DNA of 64,000 nt from Catajapyx aquilonaris (Eukaryota). Position numbers and translations under genes: made by a program. Where the stretch lies: NCBI GenBank assembly GCA_000934665.2, contig JYFJ02002583.1, forward strand, positions 1-64,000, written 5' to 3'. Each line of letters begins with the position of its first letter. Position 1 is the stretch's first letter. Shown piece after piece: positions 15,830-64,000 of the stretch. The notes under the pieces were generated by a model that ran no database searches, was not told where the DNA came from, and saw only the letters and a program-made list of their open reading frames with translations.

Positions 15830-16159
15830 CACTTTTGCACTGCTTTACTTACAGTACACGCATGTGATCAATTCGTTCTAATATTAGGATAGTAAGGGCG
15901 GGCAATTTCACAAATTGAATGCATTCAATGTGGGAGCGAACCGTTTGTGCAATTTTCCCGCACGTGACGTCATGCGAGCCCAATGTGCGATGTCAGTTTG
16001 TGACCATCGATCTTCTGGAAACACTGTTGGGTCAGTTGGCCACGCCAGCCTTTTAGGCTCGCATGCCTTCATGCCACACTCCGGGAAGATTGACGTCCGC
16101 CACAACCAGCACCACTACTTCATTATCCAAGAGGGTCATCACCAGTACGGCTGTCCAGA

Positions 16160-38986: not shown

Positions 38987-38992
38987 TATAAA
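38987..38992 (+). promoter_or_regulatory. TATA box of the Gly/Tyr-rich gene
   Basis: TATAAA ~30 bp before an Inr-like TCACTT (~39019) and ~80 bp before the ATG. Confidence 0.6.
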
Positions 38993-39069
38993 TTCGGCGT
39001 GCAAAGGCGGCTCTGTCCTCACTTTTGCACGTCCACGCATCTGAGAATAGTCACATACATTTCTCCAGG

Positions 39070-39570
39070 ATGCGAATGGTAAGTGTTAATAGACCACTTC
39101 AAATGTACGATATCCTATTGATAACTTTTTTCTGGCAGATACTTCCAGTGGTGCTCCTGTCCGCCCTGGTCTCAGCGGTCATTGGGGAGTTGGCCTACAA
39201 CTGGGGTCAGGGGTTAAAAGGCCACGATCAGGACAAGACCTCTTCGTACCGGAACGACAAATCCACGGCTCGCTCGTACGACTACGGGTACCACGACTAC
39301 GACCACGGCGTCGGACCATACGACTACGATCAGCACTACGGCTACGCAGGCTACGGATATCCTGGCTACTCCCCAGGAGGCTATTATGGTCAGAACTATT
39401 ACGGACACCGTCACCCTCGGAGCTATGGTTATGGATACGGACATGGCTACTACGACTACGGATATGCTCCCCATTATGGATATGGAGGCTACACTTCCGG
39501 AATCCCTGGGTTCTTCCGGCGACTCATCAGCCATCGGTACAGTCCACATGGCAGATATGGAGCCTACTGA
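39070..39570 (+). CDS. Secreted Gly/Tyr/His-rich low-complexity protein (cuticular/structural or peptide precursor); exons 39070-39078, 39139-39570
   Basis: MRM|ILPVVLLSALVSAVIG signal peptide with a tiny first exon; YGY/GGY repeats; TATA upstream; AATAAA at ~39612. Confidence 0.85.
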   Translation: MRMVSVNRPLQMYDILLITFFWQILPVVLLSALVSAVIGELAYNWGQGLKGHDQDKTSSYRNDKSTARSYDYGYHDYDHGVGPYDYDQHYGYAGYGYPGYSPGGYYGQNYYGHRHPRSYGYGYGHGYYDYGYAPHYGYGGYTSGIPGFFRRLISHRYSPHGRYGAY

Positions 39571-40529
39571 TGAATGAGTTGTATTTAAAATGTTGTACAT
39601 AGTGGGTCTTGAATAAAATTCAATGTACTCGAAAGAATGCGTTGAAAATCATTACGTTGCCGTACAGTGAATGCTACGGAAGCAGTGTCAGAGATCATGA
39701 GTCAGCAGCAATGCAGTTGTCAGGAAATGCCTTTGACCTCTACAAGCAGCTGAAGAGTCACTACATTCCGGGGCATATGCTAGCTAATGTAAAAATAGAC
39801 AAAATATGTAGAAATTTATGTCACTGGCATCAGCTGAGATCTAGCAGTCGTAAAACCGGGCTTGAAATAGGCTCGTATTTCAAATTCAGACAGGTGGAAA
39901 AATTAATATTGATTCATACAGTTTTCGAATCAGTATATTTTGGTGTCCTAATACTACTGTAATGTACACACTGCCTTGCATGAAATCAAGATTAGTGACA
40001 AGAGGGCTGTAAAATGCCTGATTATTTTCACATTCCAATCTATCCAATGCTGCAGCTGTGCACTATAGAGGCATTACACATATCAAAGATTCGAATTAAA
40101 AATCACATCCTGATAATAGCCATAATAAGTCATTTCCCAATTGTCAACCAATGCCATTTACTAATTTGGTTGGTTTATTCAGTGACAAACTATTTTAACC
40201 ATTGGCAGTGACCTATTACCTGCAACATTTTACTAGCAGTGGTCGATGCACCACAAGACATTTACAGAAGGTTATAAAATACTACTGAATAATGATTAAC
40301 TCTTCTCAAATTTGCATTCCTGAGAATGGTCCGAGTATTGACCTGAGCTGAAGTGAAGAAATCGCTTGCCATTCTCAGCTCCTCATGGAAAATGTGCTAC
40401 CTTGCTAAGAATCCTGGCCCAATGCTCAGCAAATATTTCTTGACCCATAAAAGCAGGCTCCCAAATGCTCTCTGATAGCACACTGTGACACTGCCTTGCT
40501 GTCTTCACATTCTCAAGAACAGGCAGTCA

Positions 40530-43977: not shown

Positions 43978-44327
43978 CCTGCACAGTGACAAATGAAATT
44001 GTACATTTTGCGATGATGTGATCAGATTGTCATTTCTTGCAAGCCAGCACAAGTGATTCCTAAACACAGCTGCTTGTAGTGTCTAGGAGAGAATCACACT
44101 GGAGGGGACACACTGGAGGGGACACACATGCATGGTGCATAGTTTAGATGAAAGCACATTGTGATCAGCAGTTATATTCAGCCTTATAACAGTACTGGCA
44201 GCATATGCCTCTAGCTTCATTGTGGCATCAGTACTATTCTGAGGCTGCATGGCATATACTCACTTTCAATATGCATAAAATTTAACCAAGTAGGCCTACC
44301 TACATATTGTTCACTAAACTTCTAAAC

Positions 44328-44426
44328 CAGTGGTTCCCAACCTTTTTGGGCTGAAACCCCCTTTTATGATAGCTAGTCAAGTAACCCAAGGAAAAGGCTT
44401 CGCGACCCACAGGTTGGGAACCACTG
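44328..44426. mobile_element. hAT (Charlie-like) MITE
   Basis: TIR CAGTGGTTCCCAACCT; perfect 8-bp TSD TTCTAAAC. Confidence 0.9.
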
Positions 44427-44512
44427 TTCTAAACTATGCGAACAACTCGATGCACATTTCCATATAACAAAGGCTTATCATTAGTTAATAATACATGGGA
44501 AATATAGTTTAA

Positions 44513-44733
44513 GGCTGGGTATCCATGTAAAAGCTTCTCGTGCCAGAGTCGGCCAGTCCCCTCTTGCGCGAGAAAACTTGTCCGTCGAGACGGACTCTAT
44601 GTCGCCTCAAGGCCCCTCTGATCCCTCGGAAAGGGGATTAAAGTTGAAAATTTTCTACTTTTCCTCTTTCCTCCGATACGAGCATGCGCAGTTGGCCTCT
44701 CCGATAAGAGAAAACTCTGGCGAAAACCCAGCT
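44513..44733. mobile_element. Possible PIF/Harbinger-type MITE
   Basis: TAA|GGCTGGGT ... ACCCAGCT|TTA ends, plus internal inverted GCCAGAGT. Confidence 0.45.
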
Positions 44734-45300
44734 TTAGATTGCAGCAGAAGTTTCAGAAACATCTTGGCACCATCACAAAGATGATTGCAGTAAGTTGAAA
44801 TAAGAGGATTATGGCACCACACATTTCTTCAGTGAATGAAGTCAATTTCATACCATTGGCAACAGAAAAATTAATCCACGAATAATTTATTTTTACTCTC
44901 CTTTGAACTATAGTACAAGTGCAATTAAAATGTTAGGACCACCATTTTAATACTTGTGCTGTTGAAAATGAAGCAATCATAAATTTTTGAACATTGTAGA
45001 CAGCAGGTTGTGTTTTGGTAGCCTCCAGCTTAACAGTGGTAATGCTGTCAGAATATTTCCATGCAGTCCTACTGCATTACATTCCTACATTCAGTGGAAA
45101 TGTGTTCAAGTAGGACTGTAGGAAAATATTTTCTACCAATACACTTTCCTGTACATTCCTGTCAACATCTTTAAATATTCTTTTTGACTCATGGCTATTA
45201 AAAATAAAATAAAACTAGCACTTGCACATTACACAGTGGCCTTCTCTTCCTCAGTGCTACAGAAAAAGTTTCTTTTTTAGATAAACGACAACCTCTTGGG

Positions 45301-48300
45301 CTATACCAACTTGGTGTTGAGGATTTCATACTCCTTCAAACGTTTCCTGAACTTGACACACACATCCACTGGAACACCTGCATCTCGATGGGACACTTTC
45401 TTCATCAGCTTCTCCCACTTCTGCTCTAGGGCTGACTTCTCAAAAGGTGTTCTGGTACAAAATTCTGCCACTGTGCAACCTGGAATAAACCAAGCATCTT
45501 TTAGTTAAAGTGACATCATCAATAGATAAAATTTGGCATTCCCATTTCATGGCACTTTTTGACTTTGCAAGAAGCAAAACAGTTTGAAAGGTTTTAAACA
45601 ATGAACAATGGCAAAAATAAGGCAAAAACATCAAAACTTGCAGGATACCTGTTCTATTGAAGAATTAACCCTATTTAGACGGGAGGTTTTTTGGCGATTT
45701 TGTCGGATTTTGCACAGGTCAGAAAATAAATCTCTCTTTCAAGTATTTGTGCTTCCACACACTGGACTTGACTTTTGTCTCGTCAGTAAATGTCCAAGCT
45801 AGATTCTAGCAACACTTCTTGGTGCTTTAAGGAATTTAGGGCTTGCCAAACCTTAAGGCCCTACACCCCCTCCGTTCTACGCGGGTGTGTAAATCCCAAG
45901 GTTGCATGGCTTTTATATGTTGAAAAGGCACAAGAGGTGGCATGGGCGGAGTTTTTGCTACTGCGGATTTTTTTTTTTTTTTGATGGTCCTTTTCAGACC
46001 AAGGTGCAGTAGACTTGTGTGTCTGGCCCAGCCAAGCCGCTATTTACTCAGACGTGATTAGTCACATGCGTAGGTTGAGAGCTACGTAGGAATAAGAAAC
46101 CGCCTACCCAGAGCGCAAACTTGGCCTCCCTCTGATCCCCCCTACCCAGACCTATCCACCTCGGGGAAGGCCCGCGGATGGCCGGGCAGGGGTGCCTCGC
46201 CCTAATAATTGAGCACTATCCAACATTATTTATTTATTTTTAAAACCTATTAATNGGGGGGGAGGTTTTTTTTTTTCAGCGGCAGATGATGGGCAGAAAA
46301 TGTCATTTAAGTTAATCTGGTGGTTTATTTATGCAAGATTTTGTAGTCCAAAATTCGAATTTATTTTTACATGAGAGATATATAGTTTCACCAGCAAAAT
46401 TTTTGAAACCAGCGTATCAGCACATGATAAGACCGTCTAAATAGGGGTGCTATGGAGACCCATTGCCAGGGATACCCCATTGCTATGGTAACCTCTGGCG
46501 CTACGGACAACCCTTGCCATGGAACTCCTGTTGCTGTGGATGCCCGAGATGCCTGTTGCCATGGTAACCATTGGGATCAAGAGTAGGGGTGGTCGAGGGC
46601 AGGAGGAGGAGGAGGAGGAGGAGGGGGGGGGGCAGCAAAAGTGAGTATCCCTCTGTCAAAACTAACCAAAAAATTCCTCCGCTCTCTTTCCAAAAAGTCT
46701 CGTCATCAGCATCTTTCCTTTTTTGTCCTGCAGATAGACAAATACTTGCAGGAACACTTCAATATCTTCCTCACAAGTGGAGCAGTAGAAGGTCACTTCC
46801 TCTGCATTCCCCTGCCTCACACGCTTCTCAGGGCAAGTTGAAAGATAAGGGTATTGTTGAGCACATCCTGTGCAGGTGCCAATTATGTAGGCATACCATG
46901 GATCTGAGATGAAGATAAAAATTGGTTGCATAGACTGGTTGAATCACACAATTAACTTACAATTAATCCCAGGATGACCTCCAACAAGATATGAGCATAC
47001 ACGGTGCACCTTTTCTTCAGGATGGGATAGTGCATGTGAAGCCTTCACTGGTGTCTTCGTCATATCTGTAGCTAGAAGAAATAAGCAATTTGAATGTTCA
47101 ATTTCCTTGACACTATTCCTACTGCGTACTCAGATCCACATGCATGTACAGTTGGTTAAAGGATTCGCTTACCACATGAGGAAGACAAATTAGCCTCCAA
47201 TAGAAGTACTGTACTTGCTACAGGAGTGCGAGTCATTGCATCAGGGGAAGGCAGCACGTCTGTTGGAGGCTAATTTCTCCGCCTCATGTGGTAAGGAAAT
47301 CCTTTAACTGACTGTCCTGTAACTAGTAGTTGCCTCCCAACTCCACATGAGATGCAAACATATTTTACACCCAGGATAGGGATTGAACCTGCAATGGGTG
47401 CACACATTATTACAGTGTAGGGCGTCACAGTGGCCGAGTGGTTAGCGCCACAGCCTTCCACCTCTGAGGTCCCGAGTTCGATCCCCGGGTCGGACAGAGG
47501 ATGCTTATGTGGATACAGTTTCGATGGGTTCTCTATATGTTCGCGTGGGTTTTCTCGGGGTTCGCCCGTTTCCTCCCACTATCAAAATCCATCACATTAC
47601 AGGCAAATGATTAAAGTTGGTCTATTAAAAGATGATCCCCTAAAAAGCCCAAGGAGGCTAATCACGGGGTATCCATTATTATCATTATTATTATTTATGA
47701 ACTTCATTCTTTGTGGTGTATTTAAAAAATATAATTTTTGCAAGGTTTGCTCTTCTTGTCAGAACTTGTTGTATTATCTAGAAGCAACATACTGTATAAT
47801 GAAACTTGTGCATAAAGGAGCCACTTGACTGCATTTTGTGTGCGTGTGTGTGTGGGTGGACGTGTCTTGCTATCCTTGTGAGGAATTTTGTCATTACGAG
47901 GTAGTTTTCCTGTACCTCATAGTGAACACACGCCTCACAAGGATAGGGTAAAATCGAAACAATACCTCATAGAGGCAGTAAAAATATATTTCACCAAAAT
48001 TTCGTGTTTCCTTGCAGGTTAGGTTAGGTTAGTTTTAAATTTCAAATTTTGGAAAAACCGAACAAGGATAGGAATGCCCGCCTGTGGGTGGGTGTGTGTG
48101 CATTTAACAGGATTTCATTACACAAGATTGAAAGAATAAGTTTAAAATCATCTGCTGGAACAAAATGAAAGTTCATAATGTAGGGGAAAGTGGGGAGAAA
48201 TCAAACGTGGGGGAAATTTGACAGTGGACTCTGTTAGTCACCAAACAACAAAGAGAAAATTTAAATGTGAAAAATAAAATTTAAATGTGAAAAATGTCCC

Positions 48301-51300
48301 ATTCCCGGGCCTATTCTGCCTTACATGTTCCCACTAAATCCAGGGCCCATTATATGCATGCTTCACATTTCAGCACCCACTTATTAATTTGTTTATGAGA
48401 AAACATTTAAAATTAAACCAGAAAATAAATGCACCTGCACCAGAACATACCAATTAATAGAGTTTTAAAAAACCCTTACTTGTTAGGAACGTAGCATGGC
48501 CTTTGAGGCTGGGACTTATAAGTGAGGTTCCCGAGGCCTCAGGCAGCTTCTTCTTTGGTGAGGAAACTTGATTATCAGTGAGGGCTTTTTTTGTGTCCTT
48601 AGATGATTCAAGTTCCGATATATCCATTTCTGACGAGTCCTTTCTCGACTTTTTAAATGCATTTTTGAACTCTGCAAGGACATTTTTTACTCGTCTCTTC
48701 TGCTTTTGGGGAGGCAAAGCTTCCTTATTCCTCTTTTCTTGCCTTACCAACTCATTTTTAGGTGGCTGGTCTGCAGTTTCACCTCCTGAGGGTATGAGTT
48801 CCACATTTGCATGTGCACTCTTCATCTCCCTCTCTGACTTGCCTTGATGGTGTCGTAATTTCCTTTGAGGGCTTTTATCTGGATGCTTTGATTTTGATGA
48901 TGATGCACTCCTCGTATGAGCACTAATGAAATCCTGCTCATTTTTTGGTGATTCTAGCTTTTCAGGCTGTTTAGTTGTTTCTAGATTTTCAGGCTGTTTA
49001 GTGGAGGAGACTTTACCAGGACCCTCATCAGGCAACTTTTTCAATTCTTGTCCTGAAGTCCTTCCTGTTTGAGTCTGCACCCTTTCAAGACAGACCCGTG
49101 GAGACTTCAATGGGATGTGCTTGTTTTCAGTCTCTTTCCTTTCCGGAGTGACAGCTGACATGTCCATTGTTTCTCCTTTGGGCACCTCATCCAACTTCTC
49201 TGGTGAAGCTTCCCCAGCCAAACTGGCTGAACCTCCTTCCTGTTTATCCTTTGATGAGACCTCCTCAGTACTTTGTGACTCACTCTCACTTGACAACTTC
49301 TGGGACTTCTCAGTGTCACTGCCCTGCAAGTCACACAGAAATTGTAAGCCGAACTTGCATCTTGCTGACCTCACTTCTATTTCAGTGTCAACCACATTTT
49401 TGGGAGTGCATGATGTATCTTCTTCAGCAGCCTTGTCTTCAGCATGTCCATCACATTGCCTCTTCCCTGGAGTGAACATTTCACCTTCAATACTGTTACC
49501 AACTCGCTGCTTTTTGGAACTGGATGCAGCAATTTCAGCACTGGTTCTCTTCTGAGAAACACGGGTCAGCTTACTTTTAGGAACTGGAATATGCCTTTTT
49601 AACATTTGGATGATAGGATGACCAGAGACTAATGGAGTGGCACAACTGCTGCCACCATTCAGCTTGGCAGAATACAGGATAGTACCATCAGTCCATTTTG
49701 TGTCCTCAAAGATCTCAACACCATATAACATGCAGTAGGTGTTAACCTGCAGCTGAGAGATATCCTCCAGGTGATCAAACACCACGACTTCAAGGACAGG
49801 ACGTGTTTCATCATACCAGAGGCTCTTCCTTCCACTGATCATGTCACTAAAGGTGCGACTAGGAAGACTAAAAGTGGTGCCATCTTCCACCCGAAGCATG
49901 GTCACTTGGCGCTCGATCACCTGTTTTCAAGAGCAAAGAACAAATAAAACTTTCACCATTTCTTTCAGATCTTCCGTACATAATAGACCCTTAAGCGAAA
50001 ACCAAGGTTCTGATACAAAAATACAGTGGGACCTCATACTTGGAACAGCCCTAACTTCAAACGTTCCCGATTTTAGACATTCATGTGAAATTCGATCCAG
50101 AGTTCGAATGATTCTTTAAAGTTTGAACATCTTGAGCAGTGAAAAAAAATACACTCATTGCATAAATGCCTTCTGTTGTGCGCCCAACTCGTCTCTCCCT
50201 CTCACTGTCAGAGCATCTCTTGTGTTACGCATTATGCTGTTGTCAGTGCTTTTTAAGCTTTATTATTACAGTATTAATGCATTTTATTTATTGTTTTCCT
50301 GTTTTAATTTATTATTTAGGGCATTTTATTGTGTTATTTTTATCTGAAATTATGAATAATTGCTGTTAAGTTTATCGAACTTGCTATTTTTTAGAATCTG
50401 GGAATTGATTAATTACTTTCCATCATTTCTAATGGAAAAATTTATTCGGATATCGAACTATTCAGAGTTCAAATGGCCCCCTGGAAAGAATGAAGTTTGA
50501 AGTATGAGGCACCACAGTGAGTGAGATCAGCAGTGTCATGAACTTTTCAATGCCACTGTACCCATCAGCTGTTGACTGTATCAATCACAACTCCAATTTT
50601 AAAAACTTCTAAGCAGATAATAATACCTCATTATCCCTTCCCCTGACTCAATTTAATCAGTCAATCATACTTGACAATTCAATATTCACACAAGTTCACA
50701 AATAAACTGGGCCTATTCTACTGGGCCTAATAATGGCCAAATGGAGAGTTCTTACAATACACTGTAGTTTCCATACCAGAAAGACGAAATGCACTGTACA
50801 GTACAGTACTGGAAAAAATAGCCTGTATCCCCTCAAGCAGCACCAAACGGCCAGCCAAGTTGGCGCAGGTGGAAGCGTGCATGAAACCTGTTTCCACCTG
50901 CACTCACACTGGCACTGCTTGCAGGGGAGCAAGGCTATTTTTTCCAGTAGTGTGATATCCACATGTCAAATCAGAATTATTTTGTCTACTTCTCCACAAA
51001 CTCTCCATCACAGTCAATGCAATCTGACCTGTGCATAAATTTTAAATTTCCATCGAGTAGCACTCTGTTCCAGTACATCCTAGATGACACATCGCAGGTT
51101 GAGAATTACAAGGTTGTAACTGCATAGGATTTTCAAGCGCCCGATTCTCATAGCCACTAAGGGCGAAAGTCGCGTACAGGCCGTGCATCCATCCCTGCTG
51201 GGTTAGGGGGGAAGCGGGTACGCGACTTTCGCCCTTAGTGGCTACGGGAATTGGGCGCTTCGCGGCGGGATGGCAGAAAAGTGGAAAGACCACGGTTCTA

Positions 51301-54300
51301 TTCGTGGTTTTTTACTAAGGACTAGTTGGAGTATCCATGGCCAAAATTGCAAATTTTTTAAAATACCACTTTTTGAGATATTTGACCTTGAAGTACGCAA
51401 ATTTCGAAATTTCTCCAATTTCTGACCTAAAAATCGGCCAGAATGGCTTGCAACCGTGAATTTATTTTACCACGGCTGGATGTCCTCCCAGTCCGAGTTC
51501 TTGAAAAAAAATATCCACCCTGTTGTTTCAAGCCATTTTGATTTTGCATTTGAAAAGGGCAAAATTTATCATTTTGGAGGCAATATGTAAGACCATTAAA
51601 GTTCCAGTTACCAAAGTTTTATCCTACCTGTATGTACATATTCTGAAAGGCCAAGACCTCTACTTTCAGGAAGTGAAAAGCAAAACATCCTAACTTGAAT
51701 AGACACCAAACAATAGGCATTTTTAAGAACCCTTGCAAACGCTTGTTTTTGCTCGCCGCAGTGAAGAAAAATGAGCATAAATCCAACATGGTGGCAGATA
51801 AAAAATTAATAAAAATAGTTTTGAGCTAGTCAATATCAAGGCTACACTGCAAATCATGTGCTGACTATGTGCTATGTCGTAGATAGCACAAGGTGGTCTA
51901 GTTAGCACGGCCGTTAGCACAGGGAAATTTGAATCTTAAGTCAGCACCGACTCAGCACATGCGCAAGACTGTGCTGACTGGATAAATAGTCAGCACACGG
52001 TGTGCTAAAACAAATGCTTAGGCAGCACAACAGTCGGCACATGAAAGTCACATGATAAATCCAGACAGCACAATCCCATCAGCGCATGATTCATGCGCTG
52101 ATCCGCTCTTGTGCTTCGTCGAGCGGGGGAAAACCTCATGCTTGCCATTGTGTTGGAGTCGGTTGGAGTTGGTTGGAGTGCAAGTTGCTCTCATTTCTGC
52201 TGCACAGGTGACAGTTGGTGACACGGCAAGATGAGGGACTTGCAAATATATAGGATACTTGCAAATTATTTGCTCATTTTTGCAGCATTGCAGGAATGGT
52301 GGTGAAGACTCAGGTGGGGAGAGGCGGAGGAGGGCCTGGGGCAGGTTGGGGGGGGGGGAAGAGGGAGGAGGGGCAGGTCTCCTGTGCTGACTCTCATGTC
52401 AGCACAATAGCCAGCACAGCAGATGGCATAAAAAAACAAATTTGTGCTGGCTCAGAGGCAGCACATAGTCAGCACATGATTTGCAGTGTACCTGTGGTGA
52501 AAATATAAAAAATTAACTACTATCCGTTTATTTAATATAGAGCCCTGTCTTTGACTCTAAACAACTCCCAGGAAAATTATCCAAAAAAATAATGGTATGT
52601 ATCGTTAGAAAGCTTGTTTAAATCCACGTTACATAATATATGCGAGTTGTTTTCCTTTCGTCAGTCTGTAATTTTTTATCGTAAAAAGAAGGCGGAAAAG
52701 TGTCATTTTTTGACTAGTTGCCGACGTTACACCGCAAAGGGAATTTTTTATGACACTTTCAGGTGGCCAAAAAAATCCCCCTGTGAACCATGAATAGTGC
52801 ACATCTTTGTCTATCTAATGATATATTTGAAACATTGAGATCACCATTTGTGTAATCATAATTAAGTTAATTGCACACCTCTGTTATCTCGGCTGTTTAT
52901 AATCCAAATTACTTCACAAATGTATCGATGGCAAGCCAGAAATGTGCGTGATAAGATTACACCATACTCTATTACCCTAAAAATTTTAAAAGTATTTAAA
53001 AGTATCACTGTCTATTCCCGCCAGAAAGCGGGCTGGGTCCTTTTCTATTAAACTCACTAAAACAATACTTTTAAATTTTTTAGTGTAATAGAGCACAATG
53101 TAATCTTATCACCCACATTCCTGGCTTGCCGTCGATACATTCGGGAAGTAATTCGGATTATAAATAGCCGAGATAACAGAGGTGTGCAATTAACTTAATT
53201 ATGATTACACAAGTGGCAATCTCAATGTTTCAAATATATCATTAGATAGACACAGATGTGCACTATCCAGGGTTCACAGGGGGATTTTTTTGGCCTCCTG
53301 AAAGTGTCATAAAAAATTCACTTTTTGGTGTAACATCGACACTTTTCCGCCTTCTTTTTACAATACAAAATTAGAGACTGACGATAGGAAAACAACTCGT
53401 ATATATGTAACGTGGATTTAAACTAGCTTTTTCACGATACATACCATTATTTTTTTGGATAATTTGCCTGGGAGTTGTTTAGAGTGAAACTCAGGGCTCT
53501 ATATTAAATAAACGGATAGTAGAGGGTCGAGCAACCACCCTGGCCCACTTCGCATGGAATGACTCTTTAGCAGAAACCTGTTCATCAAGAAAAGTCTTCG
53601 TGGAACAATGAGAGTCCAATGCAGACAGATATTGTAGTGGATTCACTGTAATTACTGGTACTCTCTCCCTTACTTAAAAAAAACTTACCCCTCGACATGT
53701 AAAGCTGATTCTGCAAAAGAGGTTGAACACCCCAGGTCCTTTAACATCCTTGATTTGCTTTATACCCAGTGGCTTGCTGCTGATCCATTCTTGCAGCTTA
53801 TCAATTGCCCGTTCTGCATCCACTATGCCTGCAGTCACTCTCATAGATTCAGCTAATATCAGCTCCTTTTCACTGCTCTCAGTGTCTGCCTTGTTTAATT
53901 CTTCCTCTCTTGACAAGTAGAATTCTCTGAGGGCTTTGATGTGCTCACGATCTTCCTCTGAAACACAACCCTTCTCTTTACATATCAGCAATGTTTCAAT
54001 GGTACCTTACTTAAGGATCGATACAGTGATACAATGGGTGGCAGGAAATCAATGGAAGTAGATGTTTTAAGGCAAATGGAGCATAGAGGGGAAAAACGAG
54101 AGGAGTTATGAGTGTTGTGAAAGTTAGGCTCATTTTCAGAAACAGCAACATGCTGCATTAAATTTCTAATCAAAAGTAGCCCCTGGTGGTGTATATGCAT
54201 TCCCCTGGATTTCTATAGTGAACAAACTCAAAAACTTTCCAAAATATTAGATTAAGACCAATGATTAAGACATACAAAAAAAACAGAAAATACAGGAAGT

Positions 54301-57300
54301 ACCCGTTTACGCTGTTTCACATTAACGCATGATCAAAAAATTATATTTGAAAAATTTTAAGATGATAACACAATCTAAACATAAACACACCACAACACTT
54401 CTCAGAAACCAAACACACAACCGTGATTGCTCCTCTTTTGTTTTTCCTGGTGCCTTGTGGCAGGTTCTATCGCAGCGGTTCTCAACCTTCCCCACATTGG
54501 GCCCCTCTGGAAAGTAATTTCAGATATCTCATTTACTTACATTATTTATTAACAGCGTAAAACGAGTACTACCTGTACTGATATCGCAGTCACTCTGGCA
54601 GGAGAGCATGAGAAATTAATTCATATAAAAAGTAATACATAACATATGTCCAGGTAATTTGGAATTGACAAAAATGCTCACATTATGGTATTTTCTGCGA
54701 ATGTATTCACGCATATTGAGAATATTTTGAGATATATTGCAGACTTGCTTTTTAGAGCACAACTCTCCCATCTCAAGGTATCACCTAGGAACCAGACCAT
54801 TCTTCACGTTATGCATGAATGGCTTGAAATGCTTGTGAAAGAATCCAGTTTCATTCAGCTACCATAAATTGGTCTTTTCAGTGTATGATGATCTTACAAC
54901 TCCATTACTTCACTTATCTGTCTATCATAATTAGCATGCCAATAAATGCAGCATTAATATACCGGATTGCAAGAAGTGGTACCTGTGAAAGTGTATGTCT
55001 TAGCAATGGTCCATGGCTCGAGATCCTCACCACTGCCTTTGTGGAAAACTACCAGGTCCTGCAGCCTGAAGATGCGGCCATCAAGCTTCTTCTCATACTG
55101 CTCCACCTTCACAAAATAAGATGCCAATCGTGAAACCTTATAAGTAGTTGTTGCTCCGCAAGTGTGTGTCGTTATGGCTGCCCAGAAAGAGCCCGCCCTG
55201 CGGCAATTACCTTTTCTGCCTGTAGTGGTAAATGAAGCTCTCAAAAATTTGATTTTCTTTGTGATCTCGCCTTCATCTCCTATTGTTGCATTTGAGAAAT
55301 ATAATTTATTGCAACTCGCGGCCGCCCCTAGGACAGTGCCTATTGTGCCTAATGGGAAATCTGGCGTTGATTATCTTCATGACCAGGTTGCGTATGTTGC
55401 CCGCATCTGTTTTCCTCCCTACCACGTCTTCCAGTAAGGTTCTCTCTCTCCCGTCCACCCTCCCTCCCACTCTCTTCTGCCTGGAAGACAGTCATCTTGC
55501 CCCGGTGTTGAGGATGGTGTTCATGATCATGTTGCCTGTATGTTGCCCGCACCTGTTTTCCTCTCTACAGCGTCTTCCAGTAAGGTAATTATTTTTGTTG
55601 AAGAGCAGGATTGAGAAGAGCAGCCCCCGGACACTACCCTCTTATTATCGCCCTATGGGCCTGACGGGGCGTTTTGTGGGAGGTGACTGCATGTATTGCA
55701 TGCATAGTATTATAAGGCCATGGTGGAGAGATACAGACTCTGAGCAGTCAGCAGCATCGAAGCGACATCCGATGGTAACGACATTTGGCGGTAACATGCG
55801 GAAGTAGGTGACCTGAGAGACTGATAGTGGCACAATTGGGAATTGCGTGGAGCTGGCCTCGTGGTATTTGCAATTTACGTATTCCCTGTTCACTTTTTCC
55901 TAAAAACAAGTGGTGGGCATATACAGGGTGATCCAACTCTGTGGCACCAACAGTTATTGGAAAAATCAACAAGCTGCTTGTTTATAAGCAGGTCGTTGCT
56001 AAGAGATCAATAAGAGTTACTTTCTGGAGAATCGGGAATAGCACCTGCTGATATTAGGTCCAATGCCCATGTAACAATATTAATGAGGGAAAAAAGGATC
56101 ATCCGTGGGAAACAGGCTGTTCTGGTGTTCGCTGGAGGGTTTCACATGAGGTCACTAGCTGCCAAACCAAAGGTCNGTGGATCGAGTAGTAAAAGTACGT
56201 GCCACTAGATGGCATTGGAGTCAGCCGACAGCCATCACAAGATGGCGGCGACACTTACGAAGTGCACCAAAGAAGAACAGCGGGCCGTCGTGAGATTGTT
56301 GCGGAGTGAAGGGATTAAGTCGATCGAAATCCACTGCAGGATGGCCCTGAAATATGGGGACGTGTGCATGTCGCAGGGGGGAGTGTACGCGTGGTGCAAA
56401 AAATTCGTAACAGGACCCGTATACTGGGCCCGTATACTGGCCGNATGTAACAATATTAATGAGGGAAAAAAGGATCATCCGTGGGAAACAGGCTGTTCTG
56501 GTGTTCGCTGGAGGGTTTCACATGAGGTCACTAGCTGCCAAACCAAAGGTCTAATCCGTCGGAACTGGACAGACCCGGGTGTGTCAATAAATAGGCCTTC
56601 TGGTCTGTTCATTGTTGGCCGCTGTTGGCAAAACTGAGACAGGTCAACAGGCAGCGTTGTTTAGTTACCAGCAAATAAAATATTATTGTTACATGGCCAT
56701 TGGACCTAATATCAGCAGGTGCTATTCCCGATTCTCCATAAAGAGCCAGAAAGCATCTCAGGCAATGGATTTCTTAGAGTGAACTGCTGGGCCCATGGCC
56801 CCGCCCCCAAACAAACTTCTCTCCTCCCTCCCCCACCACTTTGGCACCATGACAACATGTACATGGGTATCTCTCCGCCAGAGCCGGACAACTTATTCCG
56901 ATGGTGCTTATGCGCGCCGAAAAGAAGTGAAAAGAAGAGATTCGAACACCGTTGCCTTGGATTCGAACAATGCTTCGAAATTACGTGGGCACGGATCCCG
57001 ATGCTCTTTTGTCTCTCGCCTTGAAAGTAGTCCCCATGTGGCAAGGTTGCTGATTTTAATTTTTCTATTACGCTATTCTAAATAATGCTTTAGTGTTCAT
57101 AAATTATGTCAGAACCAAATAATTGATATCGGTCGAATTCCTTTTTAAAATACACATGTTAATTACAATTATGTATTTCACCTGGCAACCTCACTGTGAC
57201 GCACGGTCATACAGGCGACCCCATTGGTTCGTCCGTGGGGGCGTGTCTGTTCACTCTAAGAAATTCGTTACCTATAGCAACGACTTGCTTATAAACAAGC

Positions 57301-60289
57301 AGCTTGCGCGATTTTTTCAATAACTACTGGTGCCATAGAGTTGGATCACCCTGTATAGAAGACACTGGCAAAATTTTGAGAGCACTCCCAACGCTGTAGG
57401 CCGTACGGTTCGGGCGGAGATATGGGTACAGTAGGATATTAATAATATAGATGACTGCTTTGGGGTCAGGCTAATGGCCAAAGCAAAGTGACTTGTCACA
57501 ACAACTACAACACAGCCATCACACAACTCATTACTAAAAAAAAAACTTATTTCATTGTTGGTTTACCCCTTCCCTCACAAAAATATAATCTACAATGGGG
57601 AGACGGAGTGGCGCCGCGGTAACGCGCGCGCGCCCACGGAAGTTAAGGTCCCGGGTTCAATCCCCACCCGGGGTTCCCACCTTCTTTCGTGCAGAGTTGG
57701 GCCATCTCTGGCTTAGTTTCGGGTGGCAATTTCCGATAGACTAAGCCACCCGGGGGAGTTCACAAAATGACGATTAGAGACATTGCACTTGCACTTTGCA
57801 CATCCCCTCCCACCCACCCTTGGAGTACACTAATAAGATTCTATCTTAACTAGCTCCAACGAAAACCCCAATGGTGGTAATCCACCCCCCCTAAGGAGTA
57901 CGTAACTCCCCCCGTGGGGTAATTCAAAAAAAATAAACAAAATAAAAAAATAAAAAAAATAAAATAATATAATCTACAATATTCATACATGCAAAAATCT
58001 TTTGAGGGGGGAAGAGAGACCAAAGCCTGAATCTTAATTAATTAAGCATGTACTACCGTACATTTTTGGCTGTGTAACAAGATTTCCTTGTGCATAAAGC
58101 TTTTTATGGCTCAATTCTCTCTTTCATTGAAGTAATGTGTATTGAAACTGTAAAGGAATAACCAGTGATTATTGCATGCAAAAATCTTGCTCTCCACTAT
58201 GGCTAGGACCTAATGCTAAACACACTGTTCCCCACCTTCATCCGATGAGCTCTCACAATATCCCCTTTCTCCAGTGGAGGTTTCTTGTCGCCCTTCTTGG
58301 AGTAAATGTGAAGAAGGAAGTCATCACAAGTCTCATCTTCAATGGCTACCATTGCATGGACCTTCACACCCTCCCTTGTGGGTGCTGGTTCCTGTTAGGT
58401 CACAAATGAGAAATTATAGATTAGGAGAAGGCAAAATCATTGCAGGTGCACACAGGGTGTAACTCTTAGATGTGTTAATTTTAATGAGTGATTTTTCATT
58501 CTAATTTGCTTATTTTTTTAAACCAACTGCTTTGGAGTAGTTACTTTCATATTACTATAAGTATTAGCTGCTAATATTAGGCCAAATGGATTCATATTCC
58601 CAAGCTCTGAATTTCAATAAATTTTGATTTGGTTGACTGATATATACGTATTGGACTTTATATGGCACAACAGCAGCAGTGGCTATTCTGTGCCAGAAAC
58701 AAATTTTGAGTAGGAATGGCATATTGAAACAACTGGCAACAACCCATTTTTTTCAGCCCAGATTCCTTTGCAGGCATTTAAAAGGGCGGGTCCATGCAAC
58801 CTGACTTATCAATTAATACTCGTACTTCTGATAACCACTGCAGGTGACTATTCAAAAGTAACTGATTAAAAATACAGTTCACTGACAAAAAATAACCACC
58901 TAAAATGGATATATCAATTGGAACACACTGTACACTTCAAACCGATCATCAAAGTATGCAACTGCTTACCTTTAGGATACTCTTGACTAATCCATACACA
59001 TGACATTCCACCTTTGACAACTTAATATCTTTGAGAGATGTGTACTTATAATCATCTCTGCCTTTCTCATCTACTTTTGAAACAGTTTTTTCCGACACGT
59101 TCGTCTGTTTTACTGATGCTGTACTGGCTCTTCGGTCTCCTGTGGGAATTATGGCTTTCAGTGACTCACTTGACCTCTTTCTTAGTGAGCGTTTACTTCC
59201 TGAGCTAGGGCCAGCTTCCTCAGTGTCAACTTCTACATGTGGCAGTACTTTCAGAGACCCAGGACTTCCTCTTGCACGGGCAACTCTTGGCCTAGGTGGA
59301 GTTGTGGGCAGGTTGTCATTGCTAACTCCATGACTGTTATTTAATGAAGCCTCTGTATTGCTTGAATCATCAATGATCTTTTCCTTCCCCTTATTTTTGT
59401 TGTCTGCACTAGCACTTTGGTCTCGAGAGTAAGACACTGTTTTTGGTGACTGAGCAACATTTTTTTTTGGCAAGACTTCAGATTCTGAGTTAGGGTCAGC
59501 TTCCTTCGAGTCACGCTGAAGTGGCAACTTTTGTGGAGATGGATGTTCCAGGCACGTGACATATGTACTACCTGACTCCTGGCTCCCTTCTGTGCCGGAA
59601 ATTCTAGGCGAAGGTGGACTTGTAGACAGGTTGTCATTGCCAACTACATGACTGCTATTTAATGAAGCATCTGTATCACTCGAGTCATCAACAATTTTCT
59701 TTCGTTTCCCCTTCTTTTTGTTTTCTCCACTGGCTCTTTGGTCTCGCGTGGAAGGAGTTGTTTTTGGTGATTCAAATAACTTCCTTCTTGGTGAGGGTGT
59801 ATGTCTTGAGCCAGAGCCTGCATCCTCATTATCATGTTGAAGTGGCGACACCTGTGGTGACGTGTGATGTGTGACACATTTACTAACTGATTCAGGGCTT
59901 CCTCCAGCACTGGTGACTATGTGCACAGGTGGACTCATGGGCAGGTTGCTATTGTCAACTGTATGACTGCTATTTATTGCAGCCTCTGTATCACTTAAGT
60001 TATCAATAATATGTTTTGGCCTCTCTCTTCTTCTAAACCCAGTTTGCTTGACTCTTGATGGGGAAGTGTCAGAATCTGAGTCGGCAATAACAATCACATC
60101 TGAAGCATCTTTATCTTTTCTTGCAATACTACGTGTCACACGCACATTCTTCATGGCCTCACTGAGGTTTGTGTGTGTTGACACTGCCTCAAAATCTTCT
60201 GAAAAAGTTCCTGGCAAGCCCCACTCAAAGTCGAGTGTTTCTGGCATGTTCACAGCAAGTGAATCTACATCACCATCAGAGTTGTCATT
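45301..60289 (-). CDS. POT1: Protection of telomeres 1 (POT1), at least 1278 aa, 5' end unresolved; exons 60289-58970, 58391-58236, 55106-54983, 53957-53689, 49920-48480, 47071-46961, 46903-46667, 45479-45301
   Basis: OB1: YKYTSLKDI..HVYGLVK, LEKGDIVRAHRMKVEQY, YTFTEEDREHIKALR. OB2: IKDV..FNLFCRI, MLRVEDGT, LEVVVFDH, KLNGG. OB3: CTGC..CSTC, LFGKRAEEFFG, YEILNTKLV*. These parallel recalled human POT1 motifs; all splice phases are compatible. Confidence 0.88.
46447..46568. repeat. Degenerate ~17-bp tandem array of RFX X-box-like palindromes
   Basis: About 7 units of TTGCYATGG(T/A)AAC; last unit GTTGCCATGGTAAC. Confidence 0.7.
47148..47315. repeat. Inverted repeat with ~57-bp arms (MITE remnant or hairpin)
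   Basis: 47148-47204 is the imperfect reverse complement of 47259-47315. Confidence 0.75.
47420..47697 (+). mobile_element. tRNA-derived SINE with a V-domain-like core and (TTA)-rich tail
   Basis: A box GTGGCCGAGTGG; B box GAGTTCGATCCCC; GCGTGGGTTTTCTCGGGGTTCGCCCGTTTCCTCCCAC core; second copy at 42720. Confidence 0.85.
47838..48100. mobile_element. Putative non-autonomous element within TG tracts, with internal (GTTAG)3
   Basis: CTATCCTTGTGAGG (47870) is inverted to CCTCACAAGGATAG (47933) and ACAAGGATAG (48062); TG-rich flanks. Confidence 0.5.
50024..50517. mobile_element. pogo/Tigger-like MITE
   Basis: TA|CAGTGGGACCTCATACTT ... AAGTATGAGGCACCACAG imperfect TIRs. Confidence 0.65.
51135..51260 (+). 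repeat. Strong hairpin: 43-bp stem, 40-nt loop
   Basis: Perfect 27-bp inverted repeat (51151-51177 / 51218-51244) extended by 16 bp with two G-U pairs and one mismatch. Confidence 0.85.
51845..52488. mobile_element. CACTA/EnSpm (CMC)-type non-autonomous element
   Basis: 29-bp perfect TIR CACTGCAAATCATGTGCTGACTATGTGCT; TA on both flanks; many subterminal AGCAC/GTGCT repeats. Confidence 0.85.
52517..53522. mobile_element. ~1 kb palindromic (foldback) element in a POT1 intron
   Basis: Arms 52517-52996 and 53064-53522 are reverse complements; 67-bp spacer containing a CCCGC/GCGGG mini-hairpin. Confidence 0.85.
55924..57353. mobile_element. Tc1/mariner-type non-autonomous element containing a nested TIR element (~56025-56738)
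   Basis: TA|CAGGGTGATCCAACTCT..., ~78-bp TIRs, TA TSD; inner TIR TGGAGAATCGGGAATAGCACCTGCTGATATTAGGTCCAATG. Confidence 0.85.
56242..56410 (+). pseudogene. Mariner transposase N-terminal HTH fragment
   Basis: MAATLTKCTKEEQRAVVRLLRSEGIKSIEIHCRMALKYGDVCMSQGGVYAWCKKF; truncated; lies between two n characters. Confidence 0.85.
57597..57965 (+). mobile_element. tRNA-derived SINE with A-rich tail
   Basis: 15-bp TSD AATATAATCTACAAT (57582-57596, 57966-57980); A box GTGGCGCCGCGG; B box GGGTTCAATCCCC. Confidence 0.88.
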
Positions 60290-60550
60290 CTGAAATTTAT
60301 AAAACTATAATTACTGCCCATGTAACAAAATTCTCAAATGATTATGATAAATACTAACAAAGTAGGTTACAATACACATGCTATCAATACTAGTAATTAA
60401 TACCATTATATTTGTGTGCTGCATCTTGTTAACTGAACTACTGCCACCTAATATTATGATTCATTGACAGTATCAGGAAAAAACAAATAAGCAACTCCGA
60501 TCACTTCTGAACAAAATGCAGGTTTCAAGCTGAATTAACAAGTCATGAAC

Positions 60551-62201
60551 CTTTCTCCATCTCTGGGTACAAAGTTGCTTTCTGACACCAGATATCCTGA
60601 CTTTCGCCACCATTGCATGACCAAAATAAGAACAGAAGCCTTCCATTTTGGTAGTGGTAGAGCATTTTGCCATGCACTTTATACAAACTGGGTGAATATA
60701 AATTTTCTATGCAGACAAGTACTGCCATCAAGGATTTCAAACTGTCCGATACAAAGTCTACTTCAGCCAATGATGATGATACATGGGTTGTTTCATAAGT
60801 CATGTCGTGTATTTTTTAAATTCAAAAACGGTAACACATACAGAGATGACCTCTGCTGAGATTTGAAGATCCGGCAATTACAATTTGGTCTGGCAAAGAG
60901 ATGTCGCCCATATCACAACATTTGGGGGCCTGGAAACAAAAGAGGATCATGAGCCTCCACCTATCCATCTCCCTAAGCCTGACGCTCTTGGAGCTGTTGA
61001 ACTTGGAATGCGGGACACTCAGCGATGGACAACACGAGAGCTTGATTTCGCGTGTGGGACAAGTGAGAGCATTATGCTTAGGACTCTGAAAAACTGAAAG
61101 GTCTCAAGAAGTTGGGAGTCCTCATTGGCTTTCTAGCCATCTCTCTGATGTGCGAAGGTGATGCCACTTTGCCCTTGCCGAAACCTTGGCCGAAACACAT
61201 TGGAACTCTGGCTCAGTGAGGGCCATGGTTTTCTTGAACGAAATGTGGCGACGGATGGCACATAGTGCTCTGACTTGTTCCACAGTCAAAATCAAGCTTC
61301 CGTGTTGTCCATCGTAGAGTGTCCTCCATGCAGCGTCCAATAGCTCCAAGCGCATCTTAGGCCAATGGCGCGGTGTGGGGTCACGATCCCCTTTTGTTTC
61401 CCTGCCACCCATGCGATATGGGCGACATCTATATACCATATCAAATTGTAATCGCTGGATCTTCAAAACTGAGCAAAGGTCATCTCCGTATGTGTTACCG
61501 TTTTTGAATAATAAAATACGTGCTGATGAAACAACCCACACATAAGGTTTAGTAAGATCTGGCAGAAAATGTGTTTTTGCTAGGATGTACAGTAGTTTTC
61601 ATAATCCCCACCATAACCACCAGCAGTGTCTACAGTTGGTAGCCTATCCAACCAAAAATCCTACACACTAAACCCCCTTGAAATATGTAACTTTCGAATA
61701 AACTTAAACATGATCCGAGAGAAGTGAAATAGGCTGCGATAAATGACAATGCTCAGAAATTCGAGAAAGGCACATTTCATGCTATTCAGGCCTCACAGCA
61801 ACAACTTAGCAGCACTGGGTGACTTGAGACACTTCAGAATAGTTTGTCACATCCAGAAGTCCCTTTGACCAGTCTCATTTACTACGGGTAAAAATAAAAA
61901 GGGGCACCTGCCTTTTCTGGAAGACCAGACTTTCTATTCTCATTGGTCCAGGCCACGTTCCAGGCAAGCCGCTGGCTAAGTAAGATCCGGGATTCTTCAT
62001 GCTGCTCATTGTGAATCAATATCTCCCAGACACATTTCGTGTCCTTAAATCTCCTGGCATGTCCTTTAATGCACCGTACATCTGTTGGATTGTGCACAAG
62101 GATAAACGCATTCACCAGATTCGGGGCCCTCTCCAGGGTCTGTGCAAGTTGACCAGGAGCAATTAAAGAAACATGGTCACCCCGAGTGTAGTCTGGAAGG
62201 A
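60551..62201 (-). CDS. Probable further upstream exons (62201-61908, 60687-60551) that splice in frame to POT1
   Basis: Phase 1 then phase 0 junctions join ..LPDYTRGDHVSLIA..LVNAFILVHNP..VWEILIH..EKA|VCIKCMAKC..FCSYFGH..RWRK|NDNSDG without stops. Confidence 0.5.
60784..61538. mobile_element. Older, more diverged long-TIR foldback element
   Basis: Arms ~60784-61078 and ~61259-61538 are reverse complements with many substitutions. Confidence 0.75.
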
Positions 62202-62757
62202 CTGGAATAAAAAGCGAAACTGAGATGGTCTTGAGGAGTTCAAAGTAATGGCTCACTGATTTATGCAAACTCCTGTATGAACATGACAATAAATTACCCC
62301 AATTTAAAATTACATTAAGCCAGTCTTGCATTGCAGTTTGAAACTATTCATGTAAGATTTTACATTTATTGACTGTAACAATACTATAGTCTGACCATTC
62401 ATAAATTGTCTTGAGGTGCCTTTCAGATCAATTACCACCCTCCCTTGTTCAGAATACATTGGTAGCCATAGCCTAGCCCTGACCCTCCTGCTGCTCAAAT
62501 TACTATCATGCAGACTCAGTCATACATCCTGGAGCCTACCCCTAGCATGTAATGCCAACTGCTGAAATGTGCTCTTTGCTTAATTCTAGGGAAGGGAGTT
62601 TTCCAAATTCCCACAGAGGCCCTTCCACAAGTAACTTGCAATAAACCAGAATATCACCCTTTCTCTCATGGATTGTACACATTACCATTGTGCAAAAGCT
62701 TGTAGCCCTCTCTGTCCTAATGTCCCACATGTTGTCAGTCTGTGCCCTTGATAATAA

Positions 62758-63801
62758 CACTGATCTGCATTTTCTGACTTTTTTTCTGTTGTTTTGAAAT
62801 AAACATGTGTATCCAAACGGATTTTTTCTGCAGATTAGGAAAATGACATTGAAAATCTCCTACTACGTCCAGTTTTCGAGTTACAGGGTGTGTCATAAAT
62901 TCACGTTGGTATGTCCACATGTCCAGCACGTGACGTGGATGGAGTTGACCTACAGCAACGTCCTTACACCACAATGTTGTGACACGGATCCTTGTTACGA
63001 CCACCACCTTTCATTCCGATTGCATCATTCCACTGGGAGTTATGCACCTCTGAAGGTGTAAAAGTGTGGGTCAGAGGTGAATATCGGTGACCTTGCGGGT
63101 ATCAAATAAAATCATAATTACGTAATTAATAAAGATACCATTAATTGTGATATTGTACGATGAGTAGGTGGCGATGCTCTATCATATTCCATCATCAAAC
63201 AAAGTGCCTGACAATTCAAGATGTATCGGGAGTGTTTGGAAGAGACCCCCACCCATGCGCAAAGGGCAATTAATCGGGAAGGAACAAAGTATGCAACACT
63301 ATACGTTATGTGGATGGGTAGGGGTCTCTTCCAAACGCTCCTGATCCATCTTGAATTGTCATGCACTTTATTTGATGATGGCGTATGATAGAGCATCACC
63401 ACCTACTCATCGTGCAATATCACAATTAATGTTATCTCGATTAATTACACAATTATGATTTTATTTGATGCCCGCAAGTTCACCGATATGCACCTCCTAC
63501 CCACACTTTTACACCTTCTGAGGTGCATAACTCCCAGTGGAATGATGCAATCGGAATGAAAGGTGGTGGTCGTAACAAGGATGCATGTCACAACAATGTG
63601 GTGTAAGGACGTGGCTGTAGGTCAACTCCATCCACGTCACGCGCTGGACATGTGGGCATACCCACGTGAATTCATGACACACCCTGTAACTCGAAAAGTG
63701 GACGTAGTAGGAGATTTTCAATGTCATTTTCATAATCTGCAGAGAAAATCCGTTCAGATAGACATTTCCATTTCAAAACAACAAAACCTTGAATATTAGT
63801 G
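62758..63801. mobile_element. ~1 kb palindromic element with CACT(G/A) termini (CACTA-like)
   Basis: TAA|CACTG ... TAGTG|TAA; arms ~62787-63256 and 63314-63783 are reverse complements; 57-bp spacer. Confidence 0.82.
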
Positions 63802-64000
63802 TAATCCGTCTGTACCAAGTATCCCTGGTAGTAAAGTTATGGCCGTACTTTCAACGTCCTGGTAAGCAGCGATGGGGCAGAGCGAGGGGGAGTGTGACAT
63901 CTAAGCAGTCAGTAGCCTATGTAGTTCAATAAACATCTCCGAATATCTCATTTTTAAAATGGAATATAGAACCATGTTCGGGTTATTTGTGTTTTCCGGT

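Follow-up and report, generated by a model that had tools for sequence, protein, structure and literature searches.

How does a telomere-capping protein come to be twice the size of its human counterpart, and does the added length hold a further folded module? This question is raised by a gene in a 64,000-nucleotide stretch of the Catajapyx aquilonaris assembly GCA_000934665.2 (contig JYFJ02002583.1, positions 1 to 64,000; hereafter the window), which a first-pass annotation had described as a giant POT1 (protection of telomeres 1) with a long N-terminal extension and possibly an extra Cys/His domain. We propose, with a probability of roughly three in four, that the locus encodes on its minus strand a POT1 of at least nine exons, and that the stretch bearing a CIKC motif, from which the extra domain had been proposed, lies in an intron. 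The protein would be about twice as large as human POT1 because of two lineage-specific, probably disordered regions, a 399-aa region at the N terminus and a 365-aa hinge.

The POT1-like gene is a real, spliced, multi-exon gene on the minus strand. The spliced contigs that define it come from one public sequencing run of one study (X1) and were placed on 44100-64000. The record does not state the kind of this run, which contains 0.37 of the sampled words of 58949-60304 (the large exon E1) and appears to behave as cDNA because intron-less joints are present in it. Its contigs skip eight stretches (45480-46666, 46904-46960, 47072-48479, 49921-53688, 53958-54982, 55107-58235, 58392-58969 and 60290-61911), corresponding to eight introns on the minus strand, seven of them GT-AG and one, at 60290-61911, GC-AG; the contigs of the gene differ from the window by 0-1 mismatches. 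Single contigs link E8-E7-E6-E5, E5-E4-E3-E2-E1 (1164 letters) and E1-E0. From 60289 down to 45301, exons E1-E8 translate as one uninterrupted open reading frame (ORF) of 1278 codons that ends in a stop at 45303-45301, and counted from the first ATG (60247) the protein has 1264 aa. The parts of the gene are these:

45301-62201, minus strand: span of the finding; all relevant open frames lie on this strand.
61912-62201, minus strand: exon E0; 61912-61999 lies in a spliced contig, and the probable 5' limit of 62201 is placed at a strong acceptor-like site.
60290-61911, minus strand: the E0-E1 intron, GC-AG, 1622 nt, skipped by a contig.
58970-60289, minus strand: exon E1, 1320 nt or 440 codons; it holds the first ATG (60247), the low-complexity extension of 399 aa and the opening 27 residues of OB1.
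58236-58391, minus strand: exon E2, the middle of OB1 including GDIVRAHRMK; joints from contigs.
54983-55106, minus strand: exon E3, the end of OB1; joints from contigs, in frame within the spliced ORF.
53689-53957, minus strand: exon E4, the helix region between the OB folds with a ~49-aa insert, and the first strand of OB2; joints from contigs.
48480-49920, minus strand: exon E5, most of OB2 and then the 365-aa charged hinge; contig pieces 48480-49365 and 49430-49918.
46961-47071, minus strand: exon E6, the start of OB3; joints from contigs.
46667-46903, minus strand: exon E7, OB3 with its zinc ribbon and no insert of HJRL size.
44941-45479, minus strand: exon E8, with the final 58 codons, the stop codon (45303-45301) and a 3' untranslated region (UTR) reaching at least to 44941; contig piece 44941-45476.

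The joints of E1 fall at 60289/61912 and 58969/58390 (cut shifted by 1), with TTTCAG/ as acceptor and AAG/GTAAGC as donor, and the 3' UTR in E8 holds an ATTAAA poly(A) signal at 44951. Between E6 and E7, the intron at 46904-46960 measures only 57 nt; it is of the GT-AG kind and confirmed by a contig. X1 gives no cover at 62028-64000 and very low cover in the middle of E1, neither of which is used as evidence, and nothing was found by Rfam at gathering thresholds or by ARAGORN.

The gene is very probably POT1, of the invertebrate type. This putative assignment formally rests on per-exon Pfam matches below threshold and on motif similarity to human POT1, and the evidence from tools is formally weak because introns split every OB fold and only contiguous translations of the window were scanned. 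Scanned as a 63-aa ORF, E2 matches the Pfam POT1 family (PF02765) at E 0.034 and 14.4 bits over positions 42-83 of the 140 in the profile; on the exact exon the match has E 0.15. The matched positions form the middle third of the profile, exactly where E2 is expected to fall, and this is the sole family match on an OB1 exon: the tail of E1 and E3 have no Pfam match, and E3 alone has none among PDB sequences. Several blocks presumably align with human POT1, namely YKYTSLKD..VYGLVK, GDIVRAHRMK, YTFTEEDREHIKALREF, the OB2 strands and the C-terminal ..YEILNTKLV.

In the C-terminal OB, E7 matches Rep_fac-A_C (E 0.0066; cut-off 28.5 bits), KDM6_GATAL (E 3.8e-4) and other zinc ribbons, all below their cut-offs; DUF4503 also matches this OB (E 0.066). 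Its ribbon consists of CTGC (46874-46863), 26 residues and CSTC (46784-46773), so that an insert splits OB3 and four cysteines stand ready to coordinate zinc at residues 1137-1170, which is the arrangement that Myler et al. 2021 (PMC8653790, part cited) give for this domain. According to the same part, the OB3 inserts of invertebrate POT1s vary yet always retain the zinc cysteines, and the POT1 OB3 resembles RPA70, zinc site included. The HJRL domain is described there as vertebrate-specific, and a POT1 of the vertebrate type, with HJRL in OB3, was rejected as a candidate here, only 26 residues separating the two Cys pairs.

The first of the two long regions lies directly before OB1. OB1 starts with YKYTSLKD.. 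at residue 400, preceded in the same exon by 399 aa that consist of 16% S and 8% each of P, D, K and T, with 18% hydrophobic residues. The first-pass annotation had placed more than 400 aa of low-complexity sequence here, and the 399 aa between Met1 and YKYTSL bear it out. In-frame ATGs occur in E1 only at codons 15, 46 and 118, and OB1 begins at codon 414; the 296 codons directly upstream of OB1 contain no in-frame ATG, and the next Met downstream is already inside OB1. To leave OB1 intact, translation must therefore begin at codon 118 of E1 or farther upstream, and a translation start just before OB1, which the annotation had named as the finding that would undo its claim, is impossible for an AUG without truncating the fold. 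Stops make up ~5% of codons in the intron sequence of the gene, so the 440 open codons of E1 are not a product of chance. Within the extension, the following parts can be told apart:

59135-60085, minus strand: three tandem protein repeats of ~105 aa, residues 55-371 of the extension.
59771-60085, minus strand: repeat 1, residues 55-159.
59453-59770, minus strand: repeat 2, residues 160-265.
59135-59452, minus strand: repeat 3, residues 266-371.
60068-60097, minus strand: VIVIADSDSD, residues 51-60, at the upstream end of the repeats; four aliphatic residues and then an acidic/Ser run, of a form like a SUMO-interacting motif (SIM).

Compared in pairs, the repeats share 39/102, 37/93 and 49/94 identical residues, with Smith-Waterman scores of 126-208 against shuffle means of 34-38 (z 14-25; 300 shuffles each). 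Most of the conservation falls in a core of ~30 aa, K-I-[IV]-D-[DN]-x-S-[DN]-T-[ED]-A-x-[IL]-N-x-S-H-x-V-x-N-x-N-L-x-x-[ST]-P-P. At the DNA level the repeats have 0.61-0.71 nucleotide identity with no stop or frameshift, and TRF reports no DNA-level tandem array in E1. A SIM is defined, in the part of PMC12751080 cited here, by a four-residue hydrophobic or aliphatic core with at least three V/I/L and a flank of acidic residues or phosphorylatable Ser, often a CK2 target. By this definition of sequence VIVIADSDSD is a putative SIM; the agreement is poorer for the repeat cores IIDN-, IVDD- and IIDD-.

The other departures in length lie between the OB folds. OB1 and OB2 (together residues 400-718) are separated by an insert of ~49 aa (residues 534-582; 53916-53770, exon E4), and between OB2 and the C-terminal OB3 (residues 1084-1264) runs a hinge of 365 aa (residues 719-1083; ~49593-48499, exon E5). 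The hinge is charged, with 67 K+R and 58 D+E, and has acidic/Ser patches at residues 810-835 and 1034-1052; contigs span E5 except for 64 nt. The ~50-aa insert and the ~370-aa charged linker that had been read from the letters alone are thus both present, the linker at 365 aa in an exon covered by contigs.

Several observations weigh against this account of the gene. A single run of unrecorded kind, from a single study, supplies all the RNA-like evidence. The contigs listed cover only the two ends of E1, and an internal splice might remove part of the repeats in some isoforms. Outside the core motif, a repeat dN/dS of 0.63-0.88 points to weak constraint only. All matches to POT1 family models fall short of the curated threshold, the best having 14.4 bits against a cut-off of 29 with the OB folds scanned in pieces; for OB2 (PF16686, POT1PC), the 127-aa and 107-aa pieces of E5, in which the first strand is missing, match 0 Pfam families at E<=10. 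Per-exon searches of PDB sequences returned no POT1 chain, and word-based protein searches returned no orthologue, whether for the E1 translation against longer proteins or for OB2 residues 1-125 against proteins of near length and longer. Finally, the functions in SUMO and CST docking discussed below are ones that we infer. As for further searches, an AlphaFold2 (AF2) model of the OB2 piece had a mean predicted local distance difference test (pLDDT) of 38 and was unusable and excluded from the structure search, and the ESM Atlas gave no usable match for this piece (recognition 1771). The PDB rows that did appear were unrelated to POT1 and were set aside, the best being a helix-turn-helix (HTH) domain protein (E 0.0043), a retroviral nucleocapsid zinc knuckle (E 2.3) and ORC6 (E 0.45).

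Does the gene extend upstream of E1, and into what? The in-frame upstream exons that the first-pass annotation had tentatively seen come down to one: E0 is spliced in frame to E1 by a contig, and the ORF with CIKC is intronic. The annotation had also allowed that its upstream exons might belong to a separate gene, and E0 is spliced to the POT1 gene, so that at least this part is not separate. The joint 61912/60289 is found in one contig, at depth 3.1 and with 88 nt on the E0 side, and the donor is AAG/GCAGGT. Across this joint the reading frame of E0 continues into E1 in phase 0; upstream of the joint it has no stop over 144 codons, as far as 62343, and it contains an ATG at 62331. At 62202/62201 an acceptor-like tract, TTTTATTCCAG/, scores 0.93 against 0.46-0.93 for the known acceptors; 62201 is exactly the end coordinate given in the first-pass annotation. 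Among windows placed in the introns of the gene, 115 of 10687 are free of stops at 97 codons and 15 of 9700 at 144 codons. A codon-usage score, a log-odds trained on 2127 codons that discriminates poorly (the coding exon E1 scores only 0.018), gives 62202-61912 a value of 0.016 in the E0 frame, compared with -0.10 and -0.03 in the other two. Upstream of E0 by ~0.6-1.6 kb lies a large inverted repeat that resembles a foldback element; its arms of 478 nt (62784-63261 and 63309-63786) are separated by 47 nt and are 91% complementary. The ORFs inside 62784-63786 have no Pfam match.

Neither relatives nor a known fold were found for E0. An exhaustive phmmer search of 1.84 billion representatives with the 153-aa E0 ORF yielded 0 matches at E<=0.001, and a search of PDB sequences was equally empty; the only Pfam match, to RA (E 0.035-0.086), was treated as chance. 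A single-sequence AF2 model of the ORF has a mean pLDDT of 59 and a predicted template modelling score (pTM) of 0.54, and its E0 part forms a helix at 63-71 and then four strands. Foldseek found nothing at E<=0.001 with this model (best FBPase, E 0.062, TM 0.24), VIA-align gave at best Z 5.5 (REDD1), below its stated chance level of 7-8 and with no OB among the 50 matches listed, so that neither structural match carries meaning, and the ESM Atlas returned unnamed clusters only, with scores up to 0.82 (recognition 1211). Modelling had been suggested as a check for an N-terminal OB module; the low-confidence model (pLDDT 59) is rich in beta strands in its E0 part, and no OB match was found with it.

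What is known of the family changes the meaning of such a module. According to the cited part of PMC8653790, every metazoan POT1 outside primates and rodents has a fourth OB fold at the N terminus, OB-N; what used to be OB-N exons in the human gene is no longer translated and holds an upstream ORF (legend of Supplemental Fig. S7). The premise that POT1 starts directly with OB1 holds, on this account, only for primates and rodents, and the idea of a fused POT1 whose extra module replaces a separate partner gives way: an additional N-terminal OB would be the ancestral state and not a partner-replacing fusion, since OB-N is common outside primates and rodents. From this distribution and from the untranslated exons of primates and rodents it would follow that E0 is the last OB-N exon or a relic of it.

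Two versions of this remain to be weighed. To the first, in which E0 is a non-coding 5' exon, a decayed OB-N relic as in primates and rodents, we give somewhat less than even odds; translation would then start at ATG 60247 (MPETLDF..), which is the first ATG of the POT1 frame in E1 and has an A at -3, and the product would be a three-OB POT1 of 1264 aa. It is in keeping with this that E0 has no homologue and no recognised fold, that its GC donor is non-canonical and that the human gene offers a precedent of untranslated former OB-N exons (PMC8653790, part cited), yet 97 codons would be open in frame with a chance of ~1%, and at least one out-of-frame upstream ATG (61943) stands in the part of E0 seen in a contig. 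The second version, that E0 is coding and part of OB-N, with a start in E0 (ATG 62331) or farther upstream and possibly beyond the window, is a serious candidate that we favour a little less. Here the phase-0 join, the 144-codon open frame, the rarity of such openness by chance in both sets of intron windows and an in-frame codon score similar to that of E1 all find a ready explanation; as a UTR, E0 would burden the start at 60247 with out-of-frame ATGs at 61943, 62000 and 62009, the beta-rich model (pLDDT 59, pTM 0.54) is better than that of the genuine OB2 piece (38), and OB-N is reported for metazoan POT1s outside primates and rodents (PMC8653790, part cited). Against it stand the lack of relatives for the 153-aa ORF among the 1.84 billion representatives and the PDB sequences, the empty results of Foldseek at E<=0.001 and of VIA (best Z 5.5, no OB fold among the 50 matches listed), and the non-coding score (-0.22) of the stretch 62343-62203. 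Moreover, E0 alone would span just part of an OB fold, and between 62210 and 63990 only one weak upstream exon candidate has the right phase, phase 1 (donor >=3, at least 15 open codons); it lacks a Met and lies within a repeat arm. On this second version the protein would be longer than 1375 aa, and its repeat region of ~400 aa would become an internal spacer that joins OB-N to OB1.

It is less likely, and in our estimate improbable, that E0 belongs to a separate upstream gene and that the contig joining it to E1 is a read-through or chimeric transcript. The frame of E0 does continue for 9 codons past the donor to a stop of its own (61884-61882), the GC donor is weak, and the E0 ORF has its weak Pfam RA match (E 0.035); but no AATAAA or ATTAAA follows E0 on the minus strand within 1622 nt, the ORF has no homologue in a large library, and the junction is in frame with POT1. 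The intron itself, which carries an inverted repeat pair (60813-61076 and 61261-61516), also contains the ORF from which an extra zinc module had been proposed:

60476-60706, minus strand: the CIKC..FCSYFGH ORF, 77 codons, with CIKC at 60685 and FCSYFGH at 60637; judged intronic.

This stretch is intron and not a zinc domain, since the ORF lies wholly inside the stretch that the sole bridging contig skips in joining E0 directly to E1. That it should nonetheless be a genuine, perhaps alternatively spliced coding exon adding a small Cys/His module is very improbable. A 35-codon in-frame cassette at 60706-60602 is formally possible, with an acceptor of 0.71 and a donor, AAA/GTCAGG, of 0.02, not far below the weakest known donor (0.3). 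The in-frame donors of the ORF score 0.02 and -1.41, however, against 0.3-6.95 for the seven known GT donors; at moderate splice thresholds (acceptor >=0.7, donor >=2) the intron offers 0 phase-0 cassette exons, the codon-usage score of the ORF (-0.124) is in the lower half of those of the window's stop-free ORFs, and it has no Pfam match. Nor do we think it likely that the gene encodes another multi-OB single-strand-binding protein with disordered regions, whether RPA70-like, HROB-like or CTC1-like. The strongest matches of the C-terminal OB, to Rep_fac-A_C and DUF4503, do lie outside any POT1 model, and the PF02765 match is below threshold; but PF02765 alone matches the OB1 exon, at the expected profile positions, and motif blocks presumably match human POT1 across OB1, OB2 and the C terminus. 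Membership in RPA70 was rejected, Rep_fac-A_C being matched on E7 only and below its cut-off and no further RPA70 domain model matching any exon piece at E<=10. A likeness to RPA70 is in any case part of how the POT1 OB3 itself is described, with its zinc site (PMC8653790, part cited).

Taking the gene as a POT1 with two long spacers, its parts may work as follows. OB1 and OB2 would bind the single-stranded telomeric G-overhang, as expected from the family, and OB3, where a short zinc ribbon with four cysteines stands at the place of the HJRL insert of vertebrates, would by analogy dock a TPP1-like partner; the window contains no gene for such a partner. The N-terminal region probably arose through triplication of a unit of ~105 aa that retained a linear motif of ~30 aa, and E0 may be the last exon of an ancestral OB-N module or a 5' UTR relic thereof. 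Both disordered regions are most likely flexible tethers with short docking motifs, acidic and rich in Ser, that would be open to regulation by phosphorylation or SUMO. In the part of PMC10197580 cited here, a basic cleft of Ctc1 accommodates the Ser/Asp-rich hinge of human POT1, and CST is bound more strongly with negative charge or phosphorylation; at fission-yeast telomeres, SUMO-SIM contacts link Tpz1 and Stn1 (PMC5955624, part cited). By analogy these precedents support, but do not show, a role of the disordered regions as tethers with docking sites. That the triplicated motif array and VIVIADSDSD together make a multivalent docking platform dependent on SUMO or phosphorylation, with the acidic/Ser hinge as an enlarged hinge for CST recruitment, is a more specific proposal and a long shot. 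If it were true, POT1 itself would, in this lineage, carry bridging functions that in other animals lie on separate shelterin subunits or in TPP1-Stn1 SUMO-SIM contacts.

Compared with known systems, this is a known protein in a variant form, distinct in the size and nature of its spacers: the repeat-built region of ~400 aa, the 365-aa hinge and a minimal OB3 insert of 26 residues. With the metazoan POT1s of the cited part of PMC8653790 it shares the order OB1-OB2-OB3, an insert-split OB3 with zinc cysteines but no HJRL, and a region N-terminal to OB1; it differs in that the ~400 aa directly before OB1 are repeat-built and of low complexity, in the hinge and the 26-residue insert, and in an OB-N that is not demonstrable. 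The Pot1 of Ustilago maydis has ~350 aa before OB1, including a 120-aa OB-N (PMC9119445, part cited). Basidiomycete Pot1s, in that source, resemble the present gene in an extension of ~200-350 aa before OB1 that includes non-OB sequence and in the zinc-binding residues of OB3. The lineages are unrelated, and the OB-N of the Ustilago extension is recognisable and binds Rad51, whereas here disordered repeats lie nearest to OB1 and any OB-N would be in separate upstream exons. The human POT1 hinge spans roughly residues 299-341 (PMC10197580, part cited).

Beside the human protein as a whole, the one described here has twice the length, two large disordered regions, no HJRL and a first ATG 399 residues upstream of OB1; shared with it are, presumably, the OB1 and OB2 blocks and a C-terminal OB, together with a Ser- and acid-rich region before OB3 and possibly untranslated or relic 5' exons. 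With the C-terminal OB of RPA70 (DBD-C, Rep_fac-A_C; E 0.0066) it has in common a partner-binding OB fold into which a zinc ribbon of four Cys is set, and the likeness is confined to this domain. We found no such form of POT1 described in the literature searched, which did not cover the figures and image tables of Myler et al., where a similar long orthologue may be listed.

Repeats and other genes accompany POT1 in the window. Within its introns, 47420-48083 and 57380-58043 reach summed X1 contig depths of 235 and 901, compared with 1-12 elsewhere; their minus-strand translations look tRNA-derived, and they are therefore probably high-copy repeats like short interspersed nuclear elements, although ARAGORN finds no tRNA at either place. 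The E2-E3 intron holds a duplicated, partly inverted element (55966-56660), where the X1 contigs have a joint of the 'opposite strands' type (56078/56541) and leave out stretches of 436-488 nt. An ORF of 142 aa on the plus strand there (56209-56637), without a Pfam match at E<=0.01, presumably resembles the N-terminal HTH of mariner-type transposases. Farther away lie these features:

13816-18819, plus strand: two adjacent genes for ankyrin-repeat proteins with long hydrophobic, channel-like C-terminal parts, possibly TRP-like tandem paralogues; Pfam Ank families match the ORFs 13816-14160 and 16630-18819 (E 6e-19 to 4e-14), and the ORF 14147-15370 has no Pfam match.
29526-32577, minus strand: a fascin gene, with three ORFs that match Pfam Fascin (E 1.4e-21, 1e-12 and 9.9e-06).
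8363-8919 and 38992-39648: two low-complexity, coding-like stretches, neither with a Pfam match; one consists of an ORF of TTKP/ATTKPTTK repeats, with several frames open, and the other of a Gly/Tyr/His-rich ORF (..GYGYGHGYYDYGY..).

The architecture of non-vertebrate POT1 is known mainly from database surveys, and this gene provides an exon-level, RNA-supported model of the invertebrate type. In it, the OB folds for binding DNA and partners are set apart by two disordered regions of ~400 aa each, one of them made up of repeats that share a conserved linear motif; in other respects it is an ordinary orthologue with lineage-specific growth of low-complexity sequence. The gene also allows one to ask whether the ancestral OB-N persists behind a long linker or has decayed into a 5' UTR in another lineage, as it did in primates and rodents. 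If the motifs are docking sites, telomere-capping proteins may gain regulatory contacts through the expansion of linkers and not through added subunits.

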